DNA of 44,482 nucleotides from Escherichia phage EcoPhCCP1, in sequence record PQ384582.1; one strand, given 5' to 3'. Shown in pieces: positions 1 to 44,482 of the stretch. The notes below the pieces were generated by a model. That model saw only the letters and a program-made list of their open reading frames with translations. It was not told the origin of the DNA and did not search any database. Position 1 is the stretch's first letter. Each line of letters begins with the position of its first letter. The position numbers and the translations under genes were made by a program.

Positions 1-111
1 TCCTCTACCTCACCCATATTCGTTGTTACGATTTTACCCACAGGCTCCGCGACACTGAAAACAATCTCAGTCGGTGCTGTCTCTTCTGTAGATTCGACTG
101 GTTTCTCTTTG

Positions 112-265
112 CCTAACCCCAGCTTCGCGGCAGCAAACGTAGCAGAGATACCAGCAGCCCCTGTCTCGGTGAAATATGCCTCTTCCAGCCTAACCCCAGC
201 TTCGCGGCAGCAAACGTAGCAGAGATACCAGCAGCCCCTGTCTCGGTGAAATATGCCTCTTCCAG
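112..265. repeat. perfect 77-bp tandem direct repeat, two copies (112-188 and 189-265)
   Basis: Read directly: both copies are cctaaccccagcttcgcggcagcaaacgtagcagagataccagcagcccctgtctcggtgaaatatgcctcttccag; phase ambiguous by 1 nt. Confidence 0.95.
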
Positions 266-619
266 CGCCTGCGCCGTTTCCCAGGCTTCTGCAAATGCGG
301 GAATCTCGCGCAGCCACAGCTTAATAATCGGGATAGTGACGCCAATGTGTAAGGCGAAGCGGGCCAGTGATGGTGGTTTATCCTGAATCAGCGGGCGTTC
401 GTCACCCTTAGACGTGGGCACAAGCTCCCATGACGTGCGGTCGAAGAAACGAATCAATTCGTCGCAATAGTCCGGGTCCCACAACGCGGCGGAATTACGG
501 GATGATTGATAAAGGCTCTGTTTACCGCGCGGTCGTTTACGGCGACGGTTTGCGCTAACAGCTTCTTCATGTGCAGCTTGCACCACCTCTGGTGATGGCT
601 GCTTGAGTTTCAGCTTCAT
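113..619 (-). CDS. terS: terminase small subunit (C-terminus altered by the 77-bp duplication)
   Basis: Small-terminase-like motif pattern (PSLARFALHIGVT...W...AF); AAGGGGA SD 4 nt before ATG 617-619 (track ORF extends to 658); circularly adjacent to terL. Confidence 0.6.
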   Translation of the reverse strand: MKLKLKQPSPEVVQAAHEEAVSANRRRKRPRGKQSLYQSSRNSAALWDPDYCDELIRFFDRTSWELVPTSKGDERPLIQDKPPSLARFALHIGVTIPIIKLWLREIPAFAEAWETAQALEEAYFTETGAAGISATFAAAKLGLGWKRHISPRQGLLVSLLRLLPRSWG

Positions 620-636
620 AGAATCCCCTTGCGTAT

Positions 637-690
637 GCGTCTGACCATCAGAGCGCATCAGACGCGCCCTACGCGTCTAAATGGATTATA
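637..690 (-). promoter_or_regulatory. candidate promoter/leader upstream of terS: TATAAT (690-685) plus two overlapping, mutually exclusive dyads
   Basis: Dyads AGACGCG/CGCGTCT (660-666/672-678) and GCGTCTGA/TCAGACGC (637-644/658-665) share the CGCGTCT arm. Confidence 0.3.
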
Positions 691-711
691 TAAGGGGATT
701 AGGCAGGATGT

Positions 712-736
712 ACAGAAAAGCCCTCCGTAGAGGGCT
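712..736 (-). terminator. rho-independent terminator (minus strand)
   Basis: 7-bp GC stem AGCCCTC/GAGGGCT (719-725/730-736), loop CGTA, followed on minus strand by TTTCTGT. Confidence 0.5.
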
Positions 737-898
737 TGTGGTGTGACTATTCGGTTATATCGCCGCCGTCTACCAGTGCGATTGGTATTCTCACTTCTCC
801 GTTGAATGTTTCTGCGCACCAGAACTTCTCACACTGCGTTACACTGAAAACATCGAGTTCTGACGTAGCGCCTGTTTTCCAGTAGACAGTTAACTTTT

Positions 899-1159
899 TC
901 ACTCCTCACTCTCCTCTTTAGCAATGCGTTGCTCAGTTTTAGTGATACCGCGGCGAGTGAATAACACCGGGCTTGTCTTAACATGCGTCATAAGACGGTT
1001 GTTATAAATTACGTGGCGCTCGCAGTTAACGTCTTTGCGGTACTTTGCAATCGTCATTTCGTTGATGCCGGTTTGTCGGCATGTCTCAGCCATCGTGCCG
1101 TATTCTTTAATCAGGTTCGGAATGCTGGTAATCATCCTAAGAAATTCCTCGTTGTCCAC
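899..1159 (-). CDS. small HTH DNA-binding protein (hypothetical)
   Basis: ORF track; HTH-like segment AETCRQTGINEMTIAKYRK; start is non-ATG or the internal Met. Confidence 0.4.
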   Translation of the reverse strand: MDNEEFLRMITSIPNLIKEYGTMAETCRQTGINEMTIAKYRKDVNCERHVIYNNRLMTHVKTSPVLFTRRGITKTEQRIAKEESEE

Positions 1160-1317
1160 ATCGCATTCGGATATTTGTTATCACGGTCCTGCACTACGGC
1201 AATCATGTTTCCTCGTTGCACCAGGCAGAAATGCCGTTGTTGCTCGCCGTTGTATCGACGCCAGATTGCTTCTTCTATTGCGGCGTTGATGTCACTGAAC
1301 ATTAATATATACCCCAC
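1132..1317 (-). CDS. hypothetical protein
   Basis: ORF track; co-directional tiling with neighbours; GTG start, possible internal ATG at 1302. Confidence 0.3.
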   Translation of the reverse strand: MGYILMFSDINAAIEEAIWRRYNGEQQRHFCLVQRGNMIAVVQDRDNKYPNAMWTTRNFLG

Positions 1318-1389
1318 AGAAATCCAACCAATAACCCAATGAAGTAACTAAGACCGACCAGACCAATAACCACCTCAAGACTCATACTC

Positions 1390-1584
1390 TCACCCCACTA
1401 TCTCATCACCAAGCCACGCCGTTTCTCGTATATCGTCAACCACACAGGCGGCGTGTTCGCGGCTAATTGCAAAAATGTAGAAGCTGAACTTCTTCCCGTC
1501 GGCGTCGATGTGGTTAACCGAGTAAGGTTTCCACAGGACGCCATCAATAACTACCGGCTTAGGCGACTCCATACGCTTTACCAC
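1390..1584 (-). CDS. hypothetical protein
   Basis: ORF track; tiles with flanking minus-strand ORFs. Confidence 0.4.
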   Translation of the reverse strand: MVKRMESPKPVVIDGVLWKPYSVNHIDADGKKFSFYIFAISREHAACVVDDIRETAWLGDEIVG

Positions 1585-1804
1585 ATTTAACGCATGTCAC
1601 TCGATGTTCCCCATCAAAATGTATGTAGTAGTCGTGCTCGCAAGGCTTTTCATCCGCTTTCAACTTATCAAGAAGCAACTTAAACGCCTCCAGTTGAAAC
1701 TCACCGTTGATAGACAGTTGCCCGCCTAACGTCTGTTTCTCCGACTCAAGCACCAGAATACGGCGCTCGAGTGATGCGATTGTGATTTTAGGCATTGCCA
1801 TCAC
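1559..1804 (-). CDS. hypothetical protein with C-terminal zinc-ribbon-like tail
   Basis: C-terminus CEHDYYIHFDGEHRVTCVKCG matches the CxH...CxKCG tail seen in two other ORFs. Confidence 0.45.
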   Translation of the reverse strand: MMAMPKITIASLERRILVLESEKQTLGGQLSINGEFQLEAFKLLLDKLKADEKPCEHDYYIHFDGEHRVTCVKCGKAYGVA

Positions 1805-1991
1805 CTTTGTTCAGGTTAAATCGGTTAATCAGTTCACGGCGGCGTTCCATAAGGATGTCTACTTGCCGTAGGTAGCGCTCGATGTTGGCGTCAATCCACG
1901 CTATTTCAGATTCACCAGTAGCGGATTCGACGCTAAGTTTCTCGTATTCGTTGTTGGTCATTTTGTTTCCCCAGTGGCTTTTTGCACGCAA
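1788..1991 (-). CDS. hypothetical protein
   Basis: ORF track; overlaps neighbours by a few codons as in a coupled operon. Confidence 0.4.
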   Translation of the reverse strand: MRAKSHWGNKMTNNEYEKLSVESATGESEIAWIDANIERYLRQVDILMERRRELINRFNLNKGDGNA

Positions 1992-2137
1992 ATAGCATCG
2001 AAACCGCTATAATTTCTATTGAAAATTGCACTTATGCTTTTAGCCGCAGTTTCACACGCATCATGATTAGAAAACTCAGCCGTTGTTACCGCCGGCCCTT
2101 GATATGAGGCAACAATGATAAATAGAATCCATGTCAT
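1958..2137 (-). CDS. small protein with N-terminal signal/TM segment
   Basis: Start taken at ATG 2135-2137 (MTWILFIIVASYQ...), ATGA overlap with upstream ORF; paralog of 4354..4572. Confidence 0.45.
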   Translation of the reverse strand: MTWILFIIVASYQGPAVTTAEFSNHDACETAAKSISAIFNRNYSGFDAICVQKATGETK

Positions 2138-7010: not shown

Positions 7011-7156
7011 ACAATAGACTATGGCCCTTCCGAATGCGCCAGCGAGACTCACTCCACACGTCGAGACGTGCTCGTTTCGCCTGCCGCGCACCGCGGTCGC
7101 TTGTTCATACTTCACAAGCTCAGGTCGAGCTTAGCATATTTCTTAGTAAAAGTCAA
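7011..7156. repeat. non-coding repeat element, copy 1 (paralog of 38980-39121)
   Basis: Direct alignment: about 80% identity overall with a 45-bp near-identical core (CGCGGTCGCTTGTTCATACTTCACAAGCTCAGGT.GAGCTTAGCA). Confidence 0.85.
7128..7156 (-). promoter_or_regulatory. promoter-like module in repeat copy 1: TTGACT-N17(TGn)-TAAGCT (minus strand)
   Basis: -35 TTGACT (7156-7151), 17-nt spacer, extended -10 TGcTAAGCT (to 7128); conserved in copy 2. Confidence 0.4.
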
Positions 7157-20136: not shown

Positions 20137-20140
20137 AGAA

Positions 20141-20167
20141 AAGGCCCCAAACGGGGCCTTAGTTTTA
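20141..20167. terminator. bidirectional rho-independent terminator between the replication and tail operons
   Basis: AAAAGGCCCC-AAAC-GGGGCCTT with T-runs on both strands. Confidence 0.75.
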
Positions 20168-22156
20168 CAGGGCCGCCATAATAAAACAAAGAAGTTCCTC
20201 ATAGCGCACGCCGAAGTTTTCACCTGCCTCTAAGGTGCATCTCTTTTCCCCGGTGTCGTACTCTTCCTCGACTTCAATCGTCTTAGTGGTAGTAATAGTT
20301 TTGCCGGTTAGGTCGTCTATTTCCGTTACTTCTTGGTCCTTAAGTACGGTACGCTTAGCCATGATTGGCTCATACTTAGCGTCCCAGGTATCGTGGCAGT
20401 AGAAAGCGTACATTTCAGGGTCCAGTCCATGCTTACGCAAAATTTTACCTATAGATTGCGCACCTACGCCAAAATGGTATCTGGCATCGTTGCCTTTCTC
20501 GGAGATAGCATCTTTGAATCTAAATTTCCATATGTCATTCTTTATTTCCATGGCCGCGGCACGTTCGGCTTCAAGTATCTTATCCCGTACTTTGAGGTCT
20601 TCATTTGATGTGTTTATCGCCCCGGTTCCCGCGTATACCACAGACCACCGACGAGACGCGGTGCCATTCGATATGGTATTGTCCGTAGAGGGCCTTATGT
20701 TGGCGGCGGCTATGACTTCGGTAGAAGCATTAAGCTGAATAACACCCGCGTTAACCCCATAAGTGCCTTGCCCGGAAGACGACGCCCCGCCGCTAACTAC
20801 AACCCTTGCATCATAATCGTTAGGGTTTCCGCTTGAGTGAAAGTCTATGTATGCTGTACCTGAGGCTGTGGTGCTTCCCAGTCCGATAGCAGACCCAGAA
20901 GCGCTCATGATTAATTTATCGTTCTGTAAATTAACGTCTCCGGATGTTAAAATAGTAGTTGAGCACTTTGGTATCTCGAACCCAGATGCGATCGACGTCA
21001 CATCGGTAAACGCTACAAGTATTTTGCTGTCCGATGCCAACGCGTGTCCCCCATTCATGTTCCCTATACGAAAGGCGTTTCTCCATCGGACCGTAGCTGT
21101 CGAAAGATTCGACAAGGCAACCCCAACGTCTACGGCGCTCCCTCGTACAGCCCCACCACCAATGACCTGAATCCCTGACCTATACCATACAGACGACCCT
21201 TCGGAGGCTACTGTGTTAAACTCACATGCGGTCACGTTATATACACCAACGGCGGATGGGCTCAAACTACCGTACATATTCCCGCCAAAGTACCCACCTT
21301 TGAATGTGCTCGGGGACGTTGATACTGCCCCTCCGTCGCCATTTTGCGACACTGCCAACCCAACCACACCCACATAGTTACGGTCCGGGTTGTCGGCACT
21401 GGTAGGTGATTTATGGGTAGATACAAATTCTGCCGCGTGCCTGCCACCTTTGGCTGCGGTGCCGCCGAAAACATGGTTTACCTGTAGCCCGTCAACTTTT
21501 GTCCCGGCCGTTAAATCGTCAACAGCATTAACCTGGTCGTCTATGATAGCAAGGTAGTTAAATTTTGCAGTGCCGGCGTTGGGTATAGTGCCAGTGATAG
21601 GGTCCGTAAGGATAACTCCTATCCCATATGTCATACCATCGTTTTGATACTCCCCGGTTCTCCCTTGCATGATAGAAAACTTATCGTTTCCGCGGGACAT
21701 TACACCTGGACCAATCAATGATGCTCCACCAAAAGCAGCCAGGTCCTGTCGTAAAATAACACCTCCAACCGACAACCATGCGCCGTCGCCTACACCGCCT
21801 GAGGTTGACGGTGTTGACGCCGCGGGGATAGTCTTCGGTAAACTACCAGCCCAATAGTACCAATCCCCATCCCCCCCATCAGTCGAAGGCCACAGCACCG
21901 CCTTGTTTCTATCGTCCGTAGTTAATGTTCCACCAGTTGTGAAATCAAAAGATGCTGGGGCTAGGCCCAAGCTACGCAACACCGCGGGTAGCGTCTTCTG
22001 ATTCTGCCCTGTAACCTGGTTTGTCGCGTAATCAATATCTGCACCCCCGGCTACTCCGCCAGATTTACCGGTAATTACCTCTGCTTCGAAAATCTGGTGT
22101 TTCTTGGCGGTTTGTAAATCCGCCAGGCTTAAAACATCACCGCATCCGCTTGACAT
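20165..22156 (-). CDS. tail fibre/tailspike with C-terminal intramolecular chaperone (peptidase S74-like) domain
   Basis: Gly-rich beta-helix-like middle; C-terminal SNEDLKVRDKILEAERAAAMEIKNDIWKFRFKD...ARYHFGVGAQ...EMYAFYCHDTWD. Confidence 0.7.
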   Translation of the reverse strand: MSSGCGDVLSLADLQTAKKHQIFEAEVITGKSGGVAGGADIDYATNQVTGQNQKTLPAVLRSLGLAPASFDFTTGGTLTTDDRNKAVLWPSTDGGDGDWYYWAGSLPKTIPAASTPSTSGGVGDGAWLSVGGVILRQDLAAFGGASLIGPGVMSRGNDKFSIMQGRTGEYQNDGMTYGIGVILTDPITGTIPNAGTAKFNYLAIIDDQVNAVDDLTAGTKVDGLQVNHVFGGTAAKGGRHAAEFVSTHKSPTSADNPDRNYVGVVGLAVSQNGDGGAVSTSPSTFKGGYFGGNMYGSLSPSAVGVYNVTACEFNTVASEGSSVWYRSGIQVIGGGAVRGSAVDVGVALSNLSTATVRWRNAFRIGNMNGGHALASDSKILVAFTDVTSIASGFEIPKCSTTILTSGDVNLQNDKLIMSASGSAIGLGSTTASGTAYIDFHSSGNPNDYDARVVVSGGASSSGQGTYGVNAGVIQLNASTEVIAAANIRPSTDNTISNGTASRRWSVVYAGTGAINTSNEDLKVRDKILEAERAAAMEIKNDIWKFRFKDAISEKGNDARYHFGVGAQSIGKILRKHGLDPEMYAFYCHDTWDAKYEPIMAKRTVLKDQEVTEIDDLTGKTITTTKTIEVEEEYDTGEKRCTLEAGENFGVRYEELLCFIMAAL

Positions 22157-29300: not shown

Positions 29301-29329
29301 TTGCACACCCCAATATAATAGGGTACTAT
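29301..29329 (+). promoter_or_regulatory. phage promoter family member TTGCAC-N17-TACTAT (plus strand) driving the moron island
   Basis: 32 bp (29301-29332) identical to 39188-39219. Confidence 0.6.
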
Positions 29330-29360
29330 TCACTTACACCAACAATGGAGGGGTTTTAAG

Positions 29361-31946: not shown

Positions 31947-31976
31947 AAAAAGGCCCCGAAAGGGGCCTTAGTTTTA
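31947..31976. terminator. bidirectional rho-independent terminator
   Basis: AAAAAGGCCCC-GAAA-GGGGCCTT flanked by A-run and T-run. Confidence 0.75.
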
Positions 31977-38979: not shown

Positions 38980-39121
38980 CAATAGAGTATGGCCCTTCCG
39001 AACGCGTCAGCGTAACTACACTCGGGACTTACGTCCGGCTCCGTTACCTGCCGCGCCGCGGTCGCTTGTTCATACTTCACAAGCTCAGGTGGAGCTTAGC
39101 ACATTTTCAGTGAAAAGTCAA
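38980..39121. repeat. non-coding repeat element, copy 2 (paralog of 7011-7156)
   Basis: Direct alignment with copy 1; conserved ends and core, variable middle with a 2-nt indel. Confidence 0.85.
39093..39121 (-). promoter_or_regulatory. promoter-like module in repeat copy 2: TTGACT-N17(TGn)-TAAGCT (minus strand)
   Basis: -35 TTGACT (39121-39116), 17-nt spacer, TGcTAAGCT; same architecture as 7128-7156. Confidence 0.4.
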
Positions 39122-39187: not shown

Positions 39188-39216
39188 TTGCACACCCCAA
39201 TATAATAGGGTACTAT
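39188..39216 (+). promoter_or_regulatory. phage promoter family member TTGCAC-N17-TACTAT (plus strand)
   Basis: 32 bp identical to 29301-29332. Confidence 0.6.
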
Positions 39217-39265
39217 TCATCTCAGCATACAACATGTTTAACCCATTAAATCGGGAGTATCTAAA

Positions 39266-39420: not shown

Positions 39421-39881
39421 CATTCTGGCTTCGTAACCTTCGCCGCTTTACTTACGGCCTCTACACCATCGGCATCGGTAACCTTGACGAAGTATTCACC
39501 GACTGCATTAACTGTCAGAGACAGAGCTTCTTCTGGAGCGTTTACCACTTCCTTCCCGTCTTTGTACCAGGTCAAGGTATACGGTGCTTTGCCCGCCTTA
39601 ACTTCGACAGTGATAGTTGCGCTGCCGTCCACCAGTTCAGCGTCTTTTGGTTGCGCCGAGAAATACACGTCGCCAGCGTCCGCCAGATACGGAATCTCGT
39701 AAAGCATACCAGCCGCGGGGAGTGCAATACCGGTTTTATCTGCAAACGGCATGTCGTCTACTGGCGTACCTAGTACACTTTCATCTCCAATAAACACCAC
39801 GTTCTCGCCGGAGCCAGACACGCGAGCATACTGGACTACGCGACGCGACGGTACGTCAGTTACTTTGAAAAAGCCCATCAT
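39420..39881 (-). CDS. Ig-like domain structural protein
   Basis: C-terminal Ig-like pattern (YTLTWYKDGKEV...GEYFVKVTDADG). Confidence 0.5.
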   Translation of the reverse strand: MMGFFKVTDVPSRRVVQYARVSGSGENVVFIGDESVLGTPVDDMPFADKTGIALPAAGMLYEIPYLADAGDVYFSAQPKDAELVDGSATITVEVKAGKAPYTLTWYKDGKEVVNAPEEALSLTVNAVGEYFVKVTDADGVEAVSKAAKVTKPE

Positions 39882-40924
39882 TAATCCCCTTTCAGATAAT
39901 CAGCAACACGTTTATCGAGTTCCGCCATCTGCTTAAGCGTGAGCGGATTCCCGAAACCATCTACAGATATTACGCGAAACTCTTCCGGCGATATACCGCT
40001 GTTACGGAAAATCTTACCGCGAACAGGACCTAGCGCCTGGTCCTGAAACCATGCCGGTTGTTGTTTAAGGAACTCGTAATAGGTGGTGTCTGCGCTTACC
40101 TGAGTACCACCTTCTGCGCCCTTAGCCGCGCGTTTTGCGCCCTTATCCAGGAAATCGAACTCGGAACTGATTACGGGCGCACTGGTGCTTCGACAGCCAA
40201 AATGCGCGGGGGGCATCGGCCCTTTACCGATTTCCCACGTCATTCCATCCCTAGCTCTACAAATTGTGCTGGTACGGCTGTCCAACGTCGATACCCATTC
40301 GTACTTCTCGATGATGTCGTCGTTCTGGCGGTACGTCTCGTTGCGGGCTTCGTTAGATACATGCGACAGCGCAGTGTGGATTACCGTAGCCGCGTTGCGT
40401 TCAGAGATGTCAGCCAGTCCGCCAGCGCCTACGACATTCTTAACAATCTGCCGTGTGGTTTGACCTTGTACGAAACCAATCTTAACGCCTGTTATCAGGC
40501 GCGCGACCTCCGTTTCACCCCAGCCCGACATCAGCTTAGTGAAGTCGACTGGTTTGTCGCTTAATGATAACGGTTGAAACGCGGCAGCAGCCCACACCTG
40601 CTCAGCGGTGGGCGTAACAAATTCCGCGTTAACGTTGGCGTTAAGTGTCTTTACGTTCCACTCCGCCTCGTACGCCGCCAGTTCCTTAAGGTCTTCTGTC
40701 AGCTTTGTCTGCCAGTCGCCTGTAATCCCCGCCAGTGCTTCTCCAAGGTCGCGTAACAGCTTATTCAGACGCGCGGTGCTTCGCCCGTCGTCACCGAATA
40801 ACAGAACCTGCCGTTTGATTTCGTTCCGCATTTCCTGAATGAATGGTGCGAGGTCTTTTACTTCACCGGATGCGGCGCGTTGCAGCCAAATCTGGTGGCT
40901 GATTAGAGATGTCAGTAAGCTCAT
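39881..40924 (-). CDS. head morphogenesis protein (Mu F / SPP1 gp7-like minor head protein)
   Basis: TICRARDGMTW...HFGCRST motif pattern; positioned after the portal gene. Confidence 0.7.
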   Translation of the reverse strand: MSLLTSLISHQIWLQRAASGEVKDLAPFIQEMRNEIKRQVLLFGDDGRSTARLNKLLRDLGEALAGITGDWQTKLTEDLKELAAYEAEWNVKTLNANVNAEFVTPTAEQVWAAAAFQPLSLSDKPVDFTKLMSGWGETEVARLITGVKIGFVQGQTTRQIVKNVVGAGGLADISERNAATVIHTALSHVSNEARNETYRQNDDIIEKYEWVSTLDSRTSTICRARDGMTWEIGKGPMPPAHFGCRSTSAPVISSEFDFLDKGAKRAAKGAEGGTQVSADTTYYEFLKQQPAWFQDQALGPVRGKIFRNSGISPEEFRVISVDGFGNPLTLKQMAELDKRVADYLKGD

Positions 40925-41066: not shown

Positions 41067-41720
41067 ATGAAACTGCAAACATTAGAGTTCCCTTATGGAG
41101 AAATCACTTTTGACCGTGAAAACTTTATTAACGTAAACGAGCTGGTTGACCAGATGAACCGTTGGCGTTTAGACAACGGCATGGGGACAAGAGAGCTTCG
41201 CCAGGTCATGGCAACGGATGGCTTCAAGATTTTCAAGGAGGAATGCGAAAAACAACTCGGAATCGAGAATGCCATAAGGGCGACGAAAGGCCGAAACGGT
41301 CGCACCTTTGCATGTCTCCATCTGGCAGTATATATTGCTGAGCAATACAGCGCCTATTTCCATTTCCTCGTTATCGACCGCTTTATCACACAACGGCAGG
41401 TAGAACTACGAAACATTGGCGCGGTGAGCTTTGTCGAGCTTAACGCTGCCGTTAGTCGAATGATTGAGCGCACGGAGGGAAGAATTGGCCACAGTGGACA
41501 CTTCATACAGGTGGCTAAAGCGGTAAAGGAATCCGTAGATATCCGCGACGTAACGGGTTTCGATACATGGGACTCTCAGGATGCGAAGACCAATCAGTTG
41601 CGAAGTGACATCCAGAAAGCTCTGGTGACACTTCTTGACATGGAGGCCGTTAATACATGGGGTGAACTGAAAGAGGCGATACCTCGGGTTGTGCGTAAAT
41701 GTGCGGCTAATATACGTTAA
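41067..41720 (+). CDS. KilA-N domain protein (moron)
   Basis: GRNGRTFACLHLAVYIAEQYSAYFHFLVIDRF resembles the KilA-N/APSES core; opposite strand to the flanking structural genes. Confidence 0.55.
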   Translation: MKLQTLEFPYGEITFDRENFINVNELVDQMNRWRLDNGMGTRELRQVMATDGFKIFKEECEKQLGIENAIRATKGRNGRTFACLHLAVYIAEQYSAYFHFLVIDRFITQRQVELRNIGAVSFVELNAAVSRMIERTEGRIGHSGHFIQVAKAVKESVDIRDVTGFDTWDSQDAKTNQLRSDIQKALVTLLDMEAVNTWGELKEAIPRVVRKCAANIR

Positions 41721-41724
41721 AGCT

Positions 41725-41750
41725 AAGGCCCCTAGCGGGGCCTTTCTATT
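41725..41750. terminator. rho-independent terminator after the KilA-N gene
   Basis: AGGCCCC-TAGC-GGGGCCT followed by TTCTATTT. Confidence 0.65.
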
Positions 41751-43219
41751 TACTCCTGTTGTTGCGCCGACTGCGGAATATCCCCCGCTACCTGAGTATT
41801 TACACCCAACGGCAGCGGTGCGTCCTCAATAGCGTTCTGAATGTCCTCATCGGTCCAGTCGGTTACGCCAGCCTTACGCAGAGCGGCGTAGTAAGCAGTA
41901 GCTGGTAACAAGCCAGCGTTAATATCCGCCATCCACTGAGAACGGTCCTGAGCTGTCATCGGTTGCAGGAAGAACTCCATATTCAGCTTGAACTCAATCT
42001 CTGTGCCTTCACGCAGCCCTAGCATCGCAGCCACCCAGCGCAATGCATCGGTGTACGCCATGCTTACGTTACGTGCGATTGTCGCCATAACAGACGTATC
42101 CGCTCCGCGTTGCAGGCGGGCCGATTCCGCGGTGATTTGCTGCGTCGGGGTGATAAGCTGCGCCCCAATCTGGATGGCCTGATTCTCTTTATCGAGCATG
42201 TTCTGTTTGGCAAGGTTGTTCTCCCCAGCCTGGACCAGAAACGCATTGCCGCCGTAACCGATGTTATGGCCCGAACGCGACCCCATGCGCACGCCGTGTG
42301 GGTTAGCCTCTTTCCACTGTTCCATGCTCATGTTCTCGCCGGGGGCGATAAACAGCGTGGGCTGGCCTACAACGAAGCTCGACTCCTCATTGTCCGCGCT
42401 GTTACGGAAATGCCCGATATTGAGCTCAGCCAACGGCAGCAAAGGGGCATCGTCGATGGTCGCATCGTTGTTGCTCGCCCCGATGAACGTGAACGGGATT
42501 TTACCGCGCAACTGTTCGCCGAGTTCCGGGTATATTTCGATTACTTCATCCTGTTCGCCACCTTCGGCATCGAAGCGATAAATGCGCTGGCGATAACGAC
42601 CGTCAATCAGGTCAAGGACACGGTATTGCTCACCAAACTTGGTTTCGAACTCTGCGCCAGGTTCCGAGTATTCCCATACTTCGCGCAGCACGACCATTGT
42701 CACACGGTTAACCGAACCGATGCGGGTCAGTCGCCAGTTGATAATGTTCTCCGCGGTGTAGAATGCGATGACTGGGTTTAACAACCCCGCGTTCTGTTCT
42801 GCCGCTGTTGCCGCGGCTGTCTCCGGGGCGTCCACCAGCAACCCGCCACGGCCTACCGAGTCAATCTCCATCAAAGTGTCCTGCGCGTGCTGCCACAGCC
42901 CGACACCGGAGCCATCCGCATTGCGTAACAGGTACTCCATTTCAGGCGGGATAATCTGCTCTGGGTCTTTGCGCATCACCGACCCCACCATCCCGGCCAG
43001 GGTACGTTTAGTGAAGTTGTAGCAAATAGCGCCGTTCTCGTATTCTTCCTGACGCTGGGCTGCGTAGACCGGGTCAGGTTCGTTCTTACCGACGTTGCGA
43101 AGATAGCGGATAAGGTCGCCCTCCAGCGCGTGGCGTACCTTCTGCCATTTATCGAAGTGATGCAGCCATTCCCGGTGTTTTGTCTTAACACCCTGATTCT
43201 GACCGTTCATAGTTAGCAT
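41750..43219 (-). CDS. portal protein
   Basis: 489-aa ORF immediately downstream of terL; no motif recognised. Confidence 0.65.
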   Translation of the reverse strand: MLTMNGQNQGVKTKHREWLHHFDKWQKVRHALEGDLIRYLRNVGKNEPDPVYAAQRQEEYENGAICYNFTKRTLAGMVGSVMRKDPEQIIPPEMEYLLRNADGSGVGLWQHAQDTLMEIDSVGRGGLLVDAPETAAATAAEQNAGLLNPVIAFYTAENIINWRLTRIGSVNRVTMVVLREVWEYSEPGAEFETKFGEQYRVLDLIDGRYRQRIYRFDAEGGEQDEVIEIYPELGEQLRGKIPFTFIGASNNDATIDDAPLLPLAELNIGHFRNSADNEESSFVVGQPTLFIAPGENMSMEQWKEANPHGVRMGSRSGHNIGYGGNAFLVQAGENNLAKQNMLDKENQAIQIGAQLITPTQQITAESARLQRGADTSVMATIARNVSMAYTDALRWVAAMLGLREGTEIEFKLNMEFFLQPMTAQDRSQWMADINAGLLPATAYYAALRKAGVTDWTDEDIQNAIEDAPLPLGVNTQVAGDIPQSAQQQE

Positions 43220-43231
43220 TGAATAATCCTC

Positions 43232-44482
43232 TTAAAGTGCGAAAGTCACCGGGATGTTGATTACTGGTTTAACCACTGGCATCTCGTAAACTACAGGATA
43301 GCCGAGAGCATCCGCCATATGGTCGATGATGCCGTCTTTGGATGGCTCCCCGTTATCGTCGTATGCCTGCTGCTCCAGCGTCTTGGCTATCTCAGGACAT
43401 AAGTGGTCGTTGACCCACAGCTTACCTTTTTCCAGCGCGGTATTCACGGCTAAAACACGGTCTTTAACCGGGGGGTTGGCGGATTTAGCGCGAACATCGA
43501 ACCCGGCCTGCTGGAGTAACGCGATATCAGAGATTGACGCCGAGTTGGTTTTGCGGTTCTTACCGCTGGCGTCCGGGTACACGACGATGCGATGGCCTTG
43601 CGACTTCCACTTCTCAGTAATCACTCTCACCGTGTCCGGCGTATCGAACAGGCCTTTCAGTTCGGCAACCGCGTGCCAGCCGTCTTTACGTTGCACATAC
43701 ACGGCGCTGGCGTTCTTCGTAACGTTGAAGTCTTGCCCGATGTACAGTGTATCGCCTGGCTGAATTGTCTCTTTGCTGCGGTGTTTGCGACGGTCATACG
43801 CATAATACACGCTGCCGGATGTCAGGTTAACGAACTCACCGTTCAGATACGCGTTAATCAGTTGCGCGGGGTAAGTCTCGGTCAGCGAGCTGATGTAATC
43901 CGGCGGCAGGAATCTCGCGTTCTCGTGTGTGGAAGCCTGCACCATAGAGTAACTCGGCGTCGGATTCTCTTTGAACTTGGCATAGACGAACTTAAACCCT
44001 TCCGGCGTCGTGGTGACGGAGATGTGGTTAGTTACGCCCGGGATAACCAGACGCATACGGGCTACGATTTTGTTCCACGCCAGCTCAGCTTTCTCGCGGC
44101 TCAATACGTCCAGCTCATCCACGACCGCAGCCGCGATTTTGAAGCCGACTATCGAGCCGGGGTTATCCATCGAGCGGCAGATAACAGTTCCGAGCACCGT
44201 CTTACCGCGGGTAACAACGACTTCTTTGTCGCCTGATTTAACCAGCACATCGAGGCCAAGCAGGTTAGCCGCTTCCTCGAATGTCGGATAGAAGATGTCA
44301 CGGATTGCAGGGTATGTGGGGCCGAAGTATCCAAGGCGTGTGCCGGGGTGCTTGAGCATAAACGTGAGCAGGTCCAGACATCCGACAAACGTCTTGCCGC
44401 TGCCGAATCCCCCGACATAGGCTTTGTATTTGTTATTGCAATTCAGGAACAGTGCCTGTGGTGCGGATAGCTGAATACTCAT
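43232..44482 (-). CDS. terL: terminase large subunit
   Basis: Walker A VGGFGSGKT near the N-terminus; window ends exactly at its ATG. Confidence 0.9.
   Translation of the reverse strand: MSIQLSAPQALFLNCNNKYKAYVGGFGSGKTFVGCLDLLTFMLKHPGTRLGYFGPTYPAIRDIFYPTFEEAANLLGLDVLVKSGDKEVVVTRGKTVLGTVICRSMDNPGSIVGFKIAAAVVDELDVLSREKAELAWNKIVARMRLVIPGVTNHISVTTTPEGFKFVYAKFKENPTPSYSMVQASTHENARFLPPDYISSLTETYPAQLINAYLNGEFVNLTSGSVYYAYDRRKHRSKETIQPGDTLYIGQDFNVTKNASAVYVQRKDGWHAVAELKGLFDTPDTVRVITEKWKSQGHRIVVYPDASGKNRKTNSASISDIALLQQAGFDVRAKSANPPVKDRVLAVNTALEKGKLWVNDHLCPEIAKTLEQQAYDDNGEPSKDGIIDHMADALGYPVVYEMPVVKPVINIPVTFAL

Follow-up and report, generated by a model that had tools for sequence, protein, structure and literature searches.

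An exact 77-nt tandem duplication near the 3' end of terS

The window, that is, the whole 44,482-nt stretch of Escherichia phage EcoPhCCP1 DNA analysed here (PQ384582.1), holds the small terminase gene (terS) at its start and the large terminase gene (terL) at its end, both on the minus strand, and an exact tandem repeat lies inside terS. The features of the locus are listed below by window position.

1..111, minus strand: true 3' end of terS, a 37-codon tail (KEKPVES...NMGEVEE) that is in frame only with one copy of the repeat removed
112..188, no strand: copy 1 of the 77-nt unit (Tandem Repeats Finder, string comparison)
189..265, no strand: copy 2 of the 77-nt unit (Tandem Repeats Finder, string comparison), with the copy-copy junction between 188 and 189
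113..658, minus strand: terS in its unrepaired form, a 181-aa frame that opens with the ATG at 658 and closes with 24 residues of frameshift junk
43232..44482, minus strand: terL, 416 aa, with Terminase_6N/Terminase_3/Terminase_6C domains, its ATG being the final three bases of the window

Tandem Repeats Finder was run on the whole 44,482-nt window and reported 111..266 as one array with a period of 77, 2.0 copies, 100% matches and 0 indels. Direct string comparison showed that 112-188 and 189-265 are the same sequence, which bears out the identity described in an earlier note on this DNA. Identity at a period of 77 began at 111 and was 79 positions long, so that it extends 2 nt beyond the 77-nt unit; the register of the unit is ambiguous by ~1 nt on each side, and 111-187 and 113-189 are equally valid. 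The copy-copy junction reads ...ATATGCCTCTTCCAG followed directly by CCTAACCCCAGCTTC..., and the unit itself is ordinary conserved coding sequence (LEEAYFTETGAAGISATFAAAKLGLG) that is single in every relative. Besides this repeat, no second exact tandem duplication of at least 20 nt was found in the window. An exact 77-nt tandem repeat cannot have arisen by chance.

The genome closes on itself and was re-opened at terL

Megablast searches with 1-1200 and 19500-44482 retrieved Kagunavirus and Jerseyvirus phages (Guernseyvirinae) at ~88-93% identity, and no match at the same-species level was obtained with these two segments. The window is a complete Kagunavirus genome. No tRNA genes were found in it. 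The tailspike (20165-22156, minus strand) contains a Tail_spike_N domain and gave a weak match to an endosialidase catalytic domain, which points to a phage specific for the K1 capsule, like the Kagunaviruses K1G, K1H and K1ind.

The window ends on the ATG of terL, and its end and start together rebuild ATGA, indicating that the genome was circularised and then opened on purpose at the start of terL. Starting at terL is the convention in many records of the genus Kagunavirus, and the authors of Sphae describe phage genomes re-circularised to start at terL with Dnaapler. Headful/pac packaging has been predicted for the Guernseyvirinae phages Shashou and SeF1, and PhageTerm identified no termini in fBC-Eco01. 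Since phages of this subfamily are predicted to be headful/pac or show no fixed termini, their assemblies close on themselves.

Removal of one copy restores terS

Because 77 is not divisible by 3, terS appears frameshifted at the join between the two copies. The earlier note had read the gene as leaving the repeat out of register and stopping at 113 after 24 residues, and the minus-strand open reading frame 113..658, which ends in ...KLGLGWKRHISPRQGLLVSLLRLLPRSWG and a stop, confirmed this reading. When one copy was deleted, the frame ran on as ...KLGLGKEKPVESTEETAPTEIVFSVAEPVGKIVTTNMGEVEE, with the copy junction falling at residue 144 and the C terminus reading ...NMGEVEE; the 37 further open codons that had been predicted for the one-copy form were thus found on the edited sequence.

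Going beyond the earlier note, we found that the repaired frame does not merely run off the window, since its stop forms across the end-to-start junction. The last tail codon and the stop are completed by window positions 44482-44479: the GAA codon consists of positions 2, 1 and 44482, and the TGA of 44481-44479, so that the join reads ...ATG GGT GAG GTA GAG GA/A TGA in gene orientation, the slash marking the window end. This TGA overlaps the terL ATG (44482-44480) as ATGA. The same 4-nt terS/terL overlap is annotated in HSE2 (terS 1497..2057, terL 250..1500) and in phage G. For the start of terS, the ATG at 619, behind AAGGGGA, is more likely than the ATG at 658, and the repaired TerS is 181 aa long when counted from 619.

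The repaired one-copy TerS matched PHROG 3064 ('terminase') with E = 1.8e-73 over profile positions 1-168 of 175, and no Pfam family was matched even at E ≤ 1. Its gene lies immediately upstream of terL, with a translational overlap after repair, which together with the profile match places the protein in PHROG 3064. The protein is identified as TerS by PHROG 3064, by synteny and by how relatives are annotated.

We also considered that the duplicated form might still allow the tail to be made as a separate product. Its tail frame is open for 107 codons, and the only upstream start codon is a GTG at 317, which has no Shine-Dalgarno sequence; separate expression was therefore rejected. The frameshift in the duplicated form removes a conserved 37-aa tail, one that co-varies with the TerL type (see below), and no restart codon makes up for it.

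Relatives carry a single copy of the 77-nt unit

All of the relatives that were aligned across the site (8/8; three GenBank records and five Logan contigs) contained one copy, and each of them produced two BLAST segments re-using the same ~77-79 nt of the subject. The five Logan contigs were found by an exact TerL look-up in public assemblies, their TerL being identical to that of the window; they represent relatives, 90-98.5% identical in the aligned segments, and none is a re-assembly of the window's own reads. Two of these independent assemblies, L005 (ERR13966357) and L008 (SRR28382068), matched the de-duplicated, circularly joined window perfectly over 1,826 nt and 2,135 nt, respectively, and the mismatch-free stretches ran across the end-to-start join as well as the duplication site. 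These two matches are the most direct support for the one-copy state.

The junction between the copies was then sought in public sequences. A 78-nt junction-centred query matched 78 phage records, and none of the matches listed crossed the junction in one piece; they were either one-sided single pieces or two-piece matches whose places fall inside one ~72-75 nt unit. A junction 30-mer gave 0 matches in viral, genome and metagenome contig collections, and the frameshifted 181-aa product had no exact match on record in the gene-position index.

At the protein level, the repaired TerS aligned to its last residue with the proteins of HSE2, BUCT823 and phage G. HSE2 and BUCT823 have exactly the same 37-residue tail, phage G has one that differs at a single residue, and the 24-residue tail of the window aligned to nothing in these three phages. 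In a tblastn search, at least 80% of the repaired TerS was covered in 442 phage records, and among the family rows listed all extend to residue 145 or beyond, that is, past the copy junction. The comparison of the TerS C terminus with related phages that the earlier note had proposed thus showed that homologues all use the one-copy frame; no homologous TerS ends at the equivalent of position 113, an ending that the note had named, together with uniform read support, as a sign of a genuine, tolerated feature.

One match in this search, PQ002172.1 (Salmonella phage SEW_9), covers residues 1-145 and was considered as another case of duplication or frameshift. This was rejected, as the record contains no tandem repeat and has a genuine alternative tail and a different terL.

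The duplication is very probably an untrimmed assembler overlap

SPAdes is documented to leave a 77-bp end overlap on contigs of circularly permuted phage genomes, of which the authors deleted one copy (PMC9409062), and the same phenomenon has been described with a 127-bp end overlap (PMC5923482). The repeat in the window resembles these overlaps in that its copies are 100% identical without indels, its length of 77 is a documented SPAdes k, the genome belongs to a headful clade that assembles as a circle and its record was re-opened elsewhere, and independent sequences of the locus are single-copy (the eight relatives above). It differs in position: in the published cases the copies lie at the ends of the record, whereas here they are adjacent and internal, as the sequence was turned to begin at terL while still untrimmed.

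We consider it very probable that the 77-nt duplication is an artefact of assembly and finishing and not a biological feature. A circularly permuted, headful-packaged Kagunavirus genome would have been assembled from short reads by a de Bruijn assembler with a final k of 77, and the self-closing genome would have been emitted as a contig with the same 77-mer at both ends. If this contig was then taken as circular and re-cut to start at the terL ATG with the overlap left untrimmed, pasting its ends together would have placed the two copies of the 77-mer side by side, as an exact tandem duplication that is internal and 111 nt away from the new end; the junction between 188 and 189 would then be the join of the original contig ends. 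Both the assembler and the rotation step in this account are what we infer to have been used. Of the two options given in the earlier note, an assembly artefact or a real duplication near a pac site, the former is supported, whereas the latter found no support, since homologues have one copy and the junction is absent from the public sequences searched. The note had placed the artefact at a packaging or terminal-redundancy boundary; such a boundary is not needed, and the repeat bears the signature of a k = 77 de Bruijn overlap left on the contig ends of a circularly permuted genome.

As a base-rate check, six complete relatives were examined for similar faults. None contained an internal exact tandem duplication of at least 20 nt, and one of the six, OQ696342.1 (Escherichia phage vB_EcoS-K1_SXAU_B4, Kagunavirus), retains an untrimmed end overlap. 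This record is labelled circular and its first 87 nt are the same as its last 87 nt (positions 1-87 and 44495-44581). Unlike the repeat in the window, this overlap is 87 rather than 77 nt long, is still terminal and lies outside terS, which is near 12.6 kb. It is an untrimmed assembler overlap, which probably brings the true genome length to 44,494 bp, and closing the record or rotating it would leave an 87-nt tandem duplication in its interior.

The 77 nt could instead be a real short direct terminal repeat or pac-proximal redundancy that was present at both ends of a linear record, which was then rotated. The pac sites of P22-like headful phages lie inside the small-terminase gene (gene 3 in P22), and the 77-nt feature likewise occupies a 3'-proximal stretch of terS in a headful clade; the rotation that this explanation requires did take place. 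However, nothing in the sequence or in the relatives marks the 77-nt unit as a pac element. The Guernseyvirinae relatives are called headful/pac or without termini by PhageTerm rather than of the short direct terminal repeat type, headful redundancy is kilobase-sized and variable rather than fixed at 77 nt, and the length is that of a documented SPAdes k-mer overlap. We regard a terminal repeat as highly improbable, and in that case too the tandem arrangement would remain an artefact, while the replicating DNA would carry an intact terS.

Neighbouring SPAdes contigs also share k nt, and two graph-adjacent contigs with a k = 77 overlap might have been concatenated by hand with the shared k-mer kept. 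The break does lie beside a module boundary (see below), where a mixed sample would branch the graph, but only a single join of this kind can be seen here, and a circle in two contigs needs two, the second of which must then have been made correctly. The chance of this explanation is the slightest of those weighed here. It is a variant of the artefact with the same practical outcome, the deletion of one copy.

The duplication lies beside a boundary between the TerS core and its tail

Two phages share the TerS core with the window but differ downstream of it. XY2 (Kagunavirus, MN927226.1) and SEW_9 keep the core up to ...AAAKLGL and after it carry a different tail of ~25 aa, NKTVV(A)EEVRDEPISEVTIKVVSGER, together with a TerL that is 31-38% identical to that of the window. 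The corresponding modules are as follows.

XY2, 250-867: alternative tail and terL module
SEW_9, 662-1835: alternative tail and terL module
Window, 1-115 and 43232-44482: tail and terL to which these correspond

Since the different tail accompanies the different TerL in XY2 and SEW_9, tail and terL travel together and behave as a single exchangeable module. The general role of TerS C termini is known from P22-like systems, and the tail may be a segment that docks TerL, which would account for the joint exchange. The duplicated form would lose both this tail and the translational overlap with terL, and a plaque-propagated phage in that state is unlikely.

The recombination boundary between core and tail lies at window ~111-115, beside the left edge of the 77-nt unit. 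That edge (111/112) is 1-4 nt from the boundary and adjoins a substitution patch in most relatives. The contig break assumed by the artefact reading falls inside terS, ~110-270 nt from the rotation point; a uniformly random break would fall so close with a probability of ~1%, which counts against that reading.

This location, at the boundary of the TerS core and an exchangeable tail, bears on a further explanation, a genuine recent 77-nt tandem duplication that arose in all or part of the population by replication slippage or illegitimate recombination at the 2-nt microhomology. Two identical copies and a 2-nt identity at the junction would fit a very recent event, the extra 2 nt being as compatible with microhomology in a real duplication as with the artefact. 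Such an event gives no reason for a length of exactly 77 nt, which is a documented SPAdes end-overlap k. It would also frameshift an essential packaging gene and uncouple the ATGA overlap of terS and terL, with no plausible start codon for a separate tail. Furthermore, its junction is absent from the relatives, isolates and public contigs searched, and the six complete relatives (0/6) offer no precedent for an exact tandem duplication of this kind. We therefore consider a genuine duplication very unlikely.

Under the assembly artefact that we favour, one may speculate that a second related phage in the reads caused a graph branch at the core/tail boundary, which would have fixed the position of the break. 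This is plausible, although the XY2-type sequences diverge from window 114 downwards and not exactly from 110/111. Nor does a graph branch save a biological reading, as nothing would constrain a real duplication or terminal repeat to exactly 77 nt.

Other features of the genome and of related records

Several other observations were made on this genome. A 217-aa open reading frame (41067-41720, plus strand) with a weak, sub-threshold KilA-N match sits between the portal gene (41750-43219, minus strand) and the gene for a Mu-F-like head protein (39881-40924, minus strand). The gap between these two genes has no insert in the relatives L004, L005 and L007 and contains other small opposite-strand open reading frames in L006 and L008; it looks like a variable slot for morons or mobile genes. 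An exact 32-nt promoter-like repeat (TTGCAC...TATAAT) occurs at 29301-29332 and 39188-39219, and a repeat of ~145 nt with 87% identity occurs in two intergenic regions, 7012-7156 and 38980-39121. A GC hairpin, AAAAGGCCCC...GGGGCCTT, is present three times at boundaries of gene blocks (20139-20167, 31948-31976 and 41723-41751) and is likely a bidirectional terminator.

Some related records also contain irregularities of their own. In PQ474795.1 (vB_Eco_AMO_3701M), TerS matched by tblastn in two pieces within 881-2017; the terS region is annotated as two short hypothetical open reading frames (930-1046 and 1080-1427), and the 'terminase' CDS (1424-2017) comprises 594 nt, or ~197 codons, versus 416 aa for TerL in the window. 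These pieces of terS and terL are probably due to frameshift errors in the record. The records of SHAK7693 (OR594180.1) and SEW_9 carry the taxonomy lines Autographiviridae/Kayfunavirus and Mesyanzhinovviridae, respectively. At terS both match Guernseyvirinae of the Kagunavirus/Jerseyvirus type, as does SHAK7693 over ~23 kb of structural genes, and both are likely misclassified.

Consequences for the record and for TerS

The true genome has one copy of the unit and is 44,405 bp long, with the stop codon of terS overlapping the start of terL. The record is corrected by deleting one 77-nt copy and annotating terS as intact; left uncorrected, it spreads a truncated TerS and a 'repeat near pac' that are both false. 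The artefact is of a well-known kind, and an exact internal tandem duplication of assembler-k length (55, 77, 99 or 127) in a rotated genome provides an error signature that can be searched for. The duplication as such adds no new biology. If the duplication were real, a TerS without its tail would mean either that the tail is dispensable or that mutant genomes are complemented in mixed infection.
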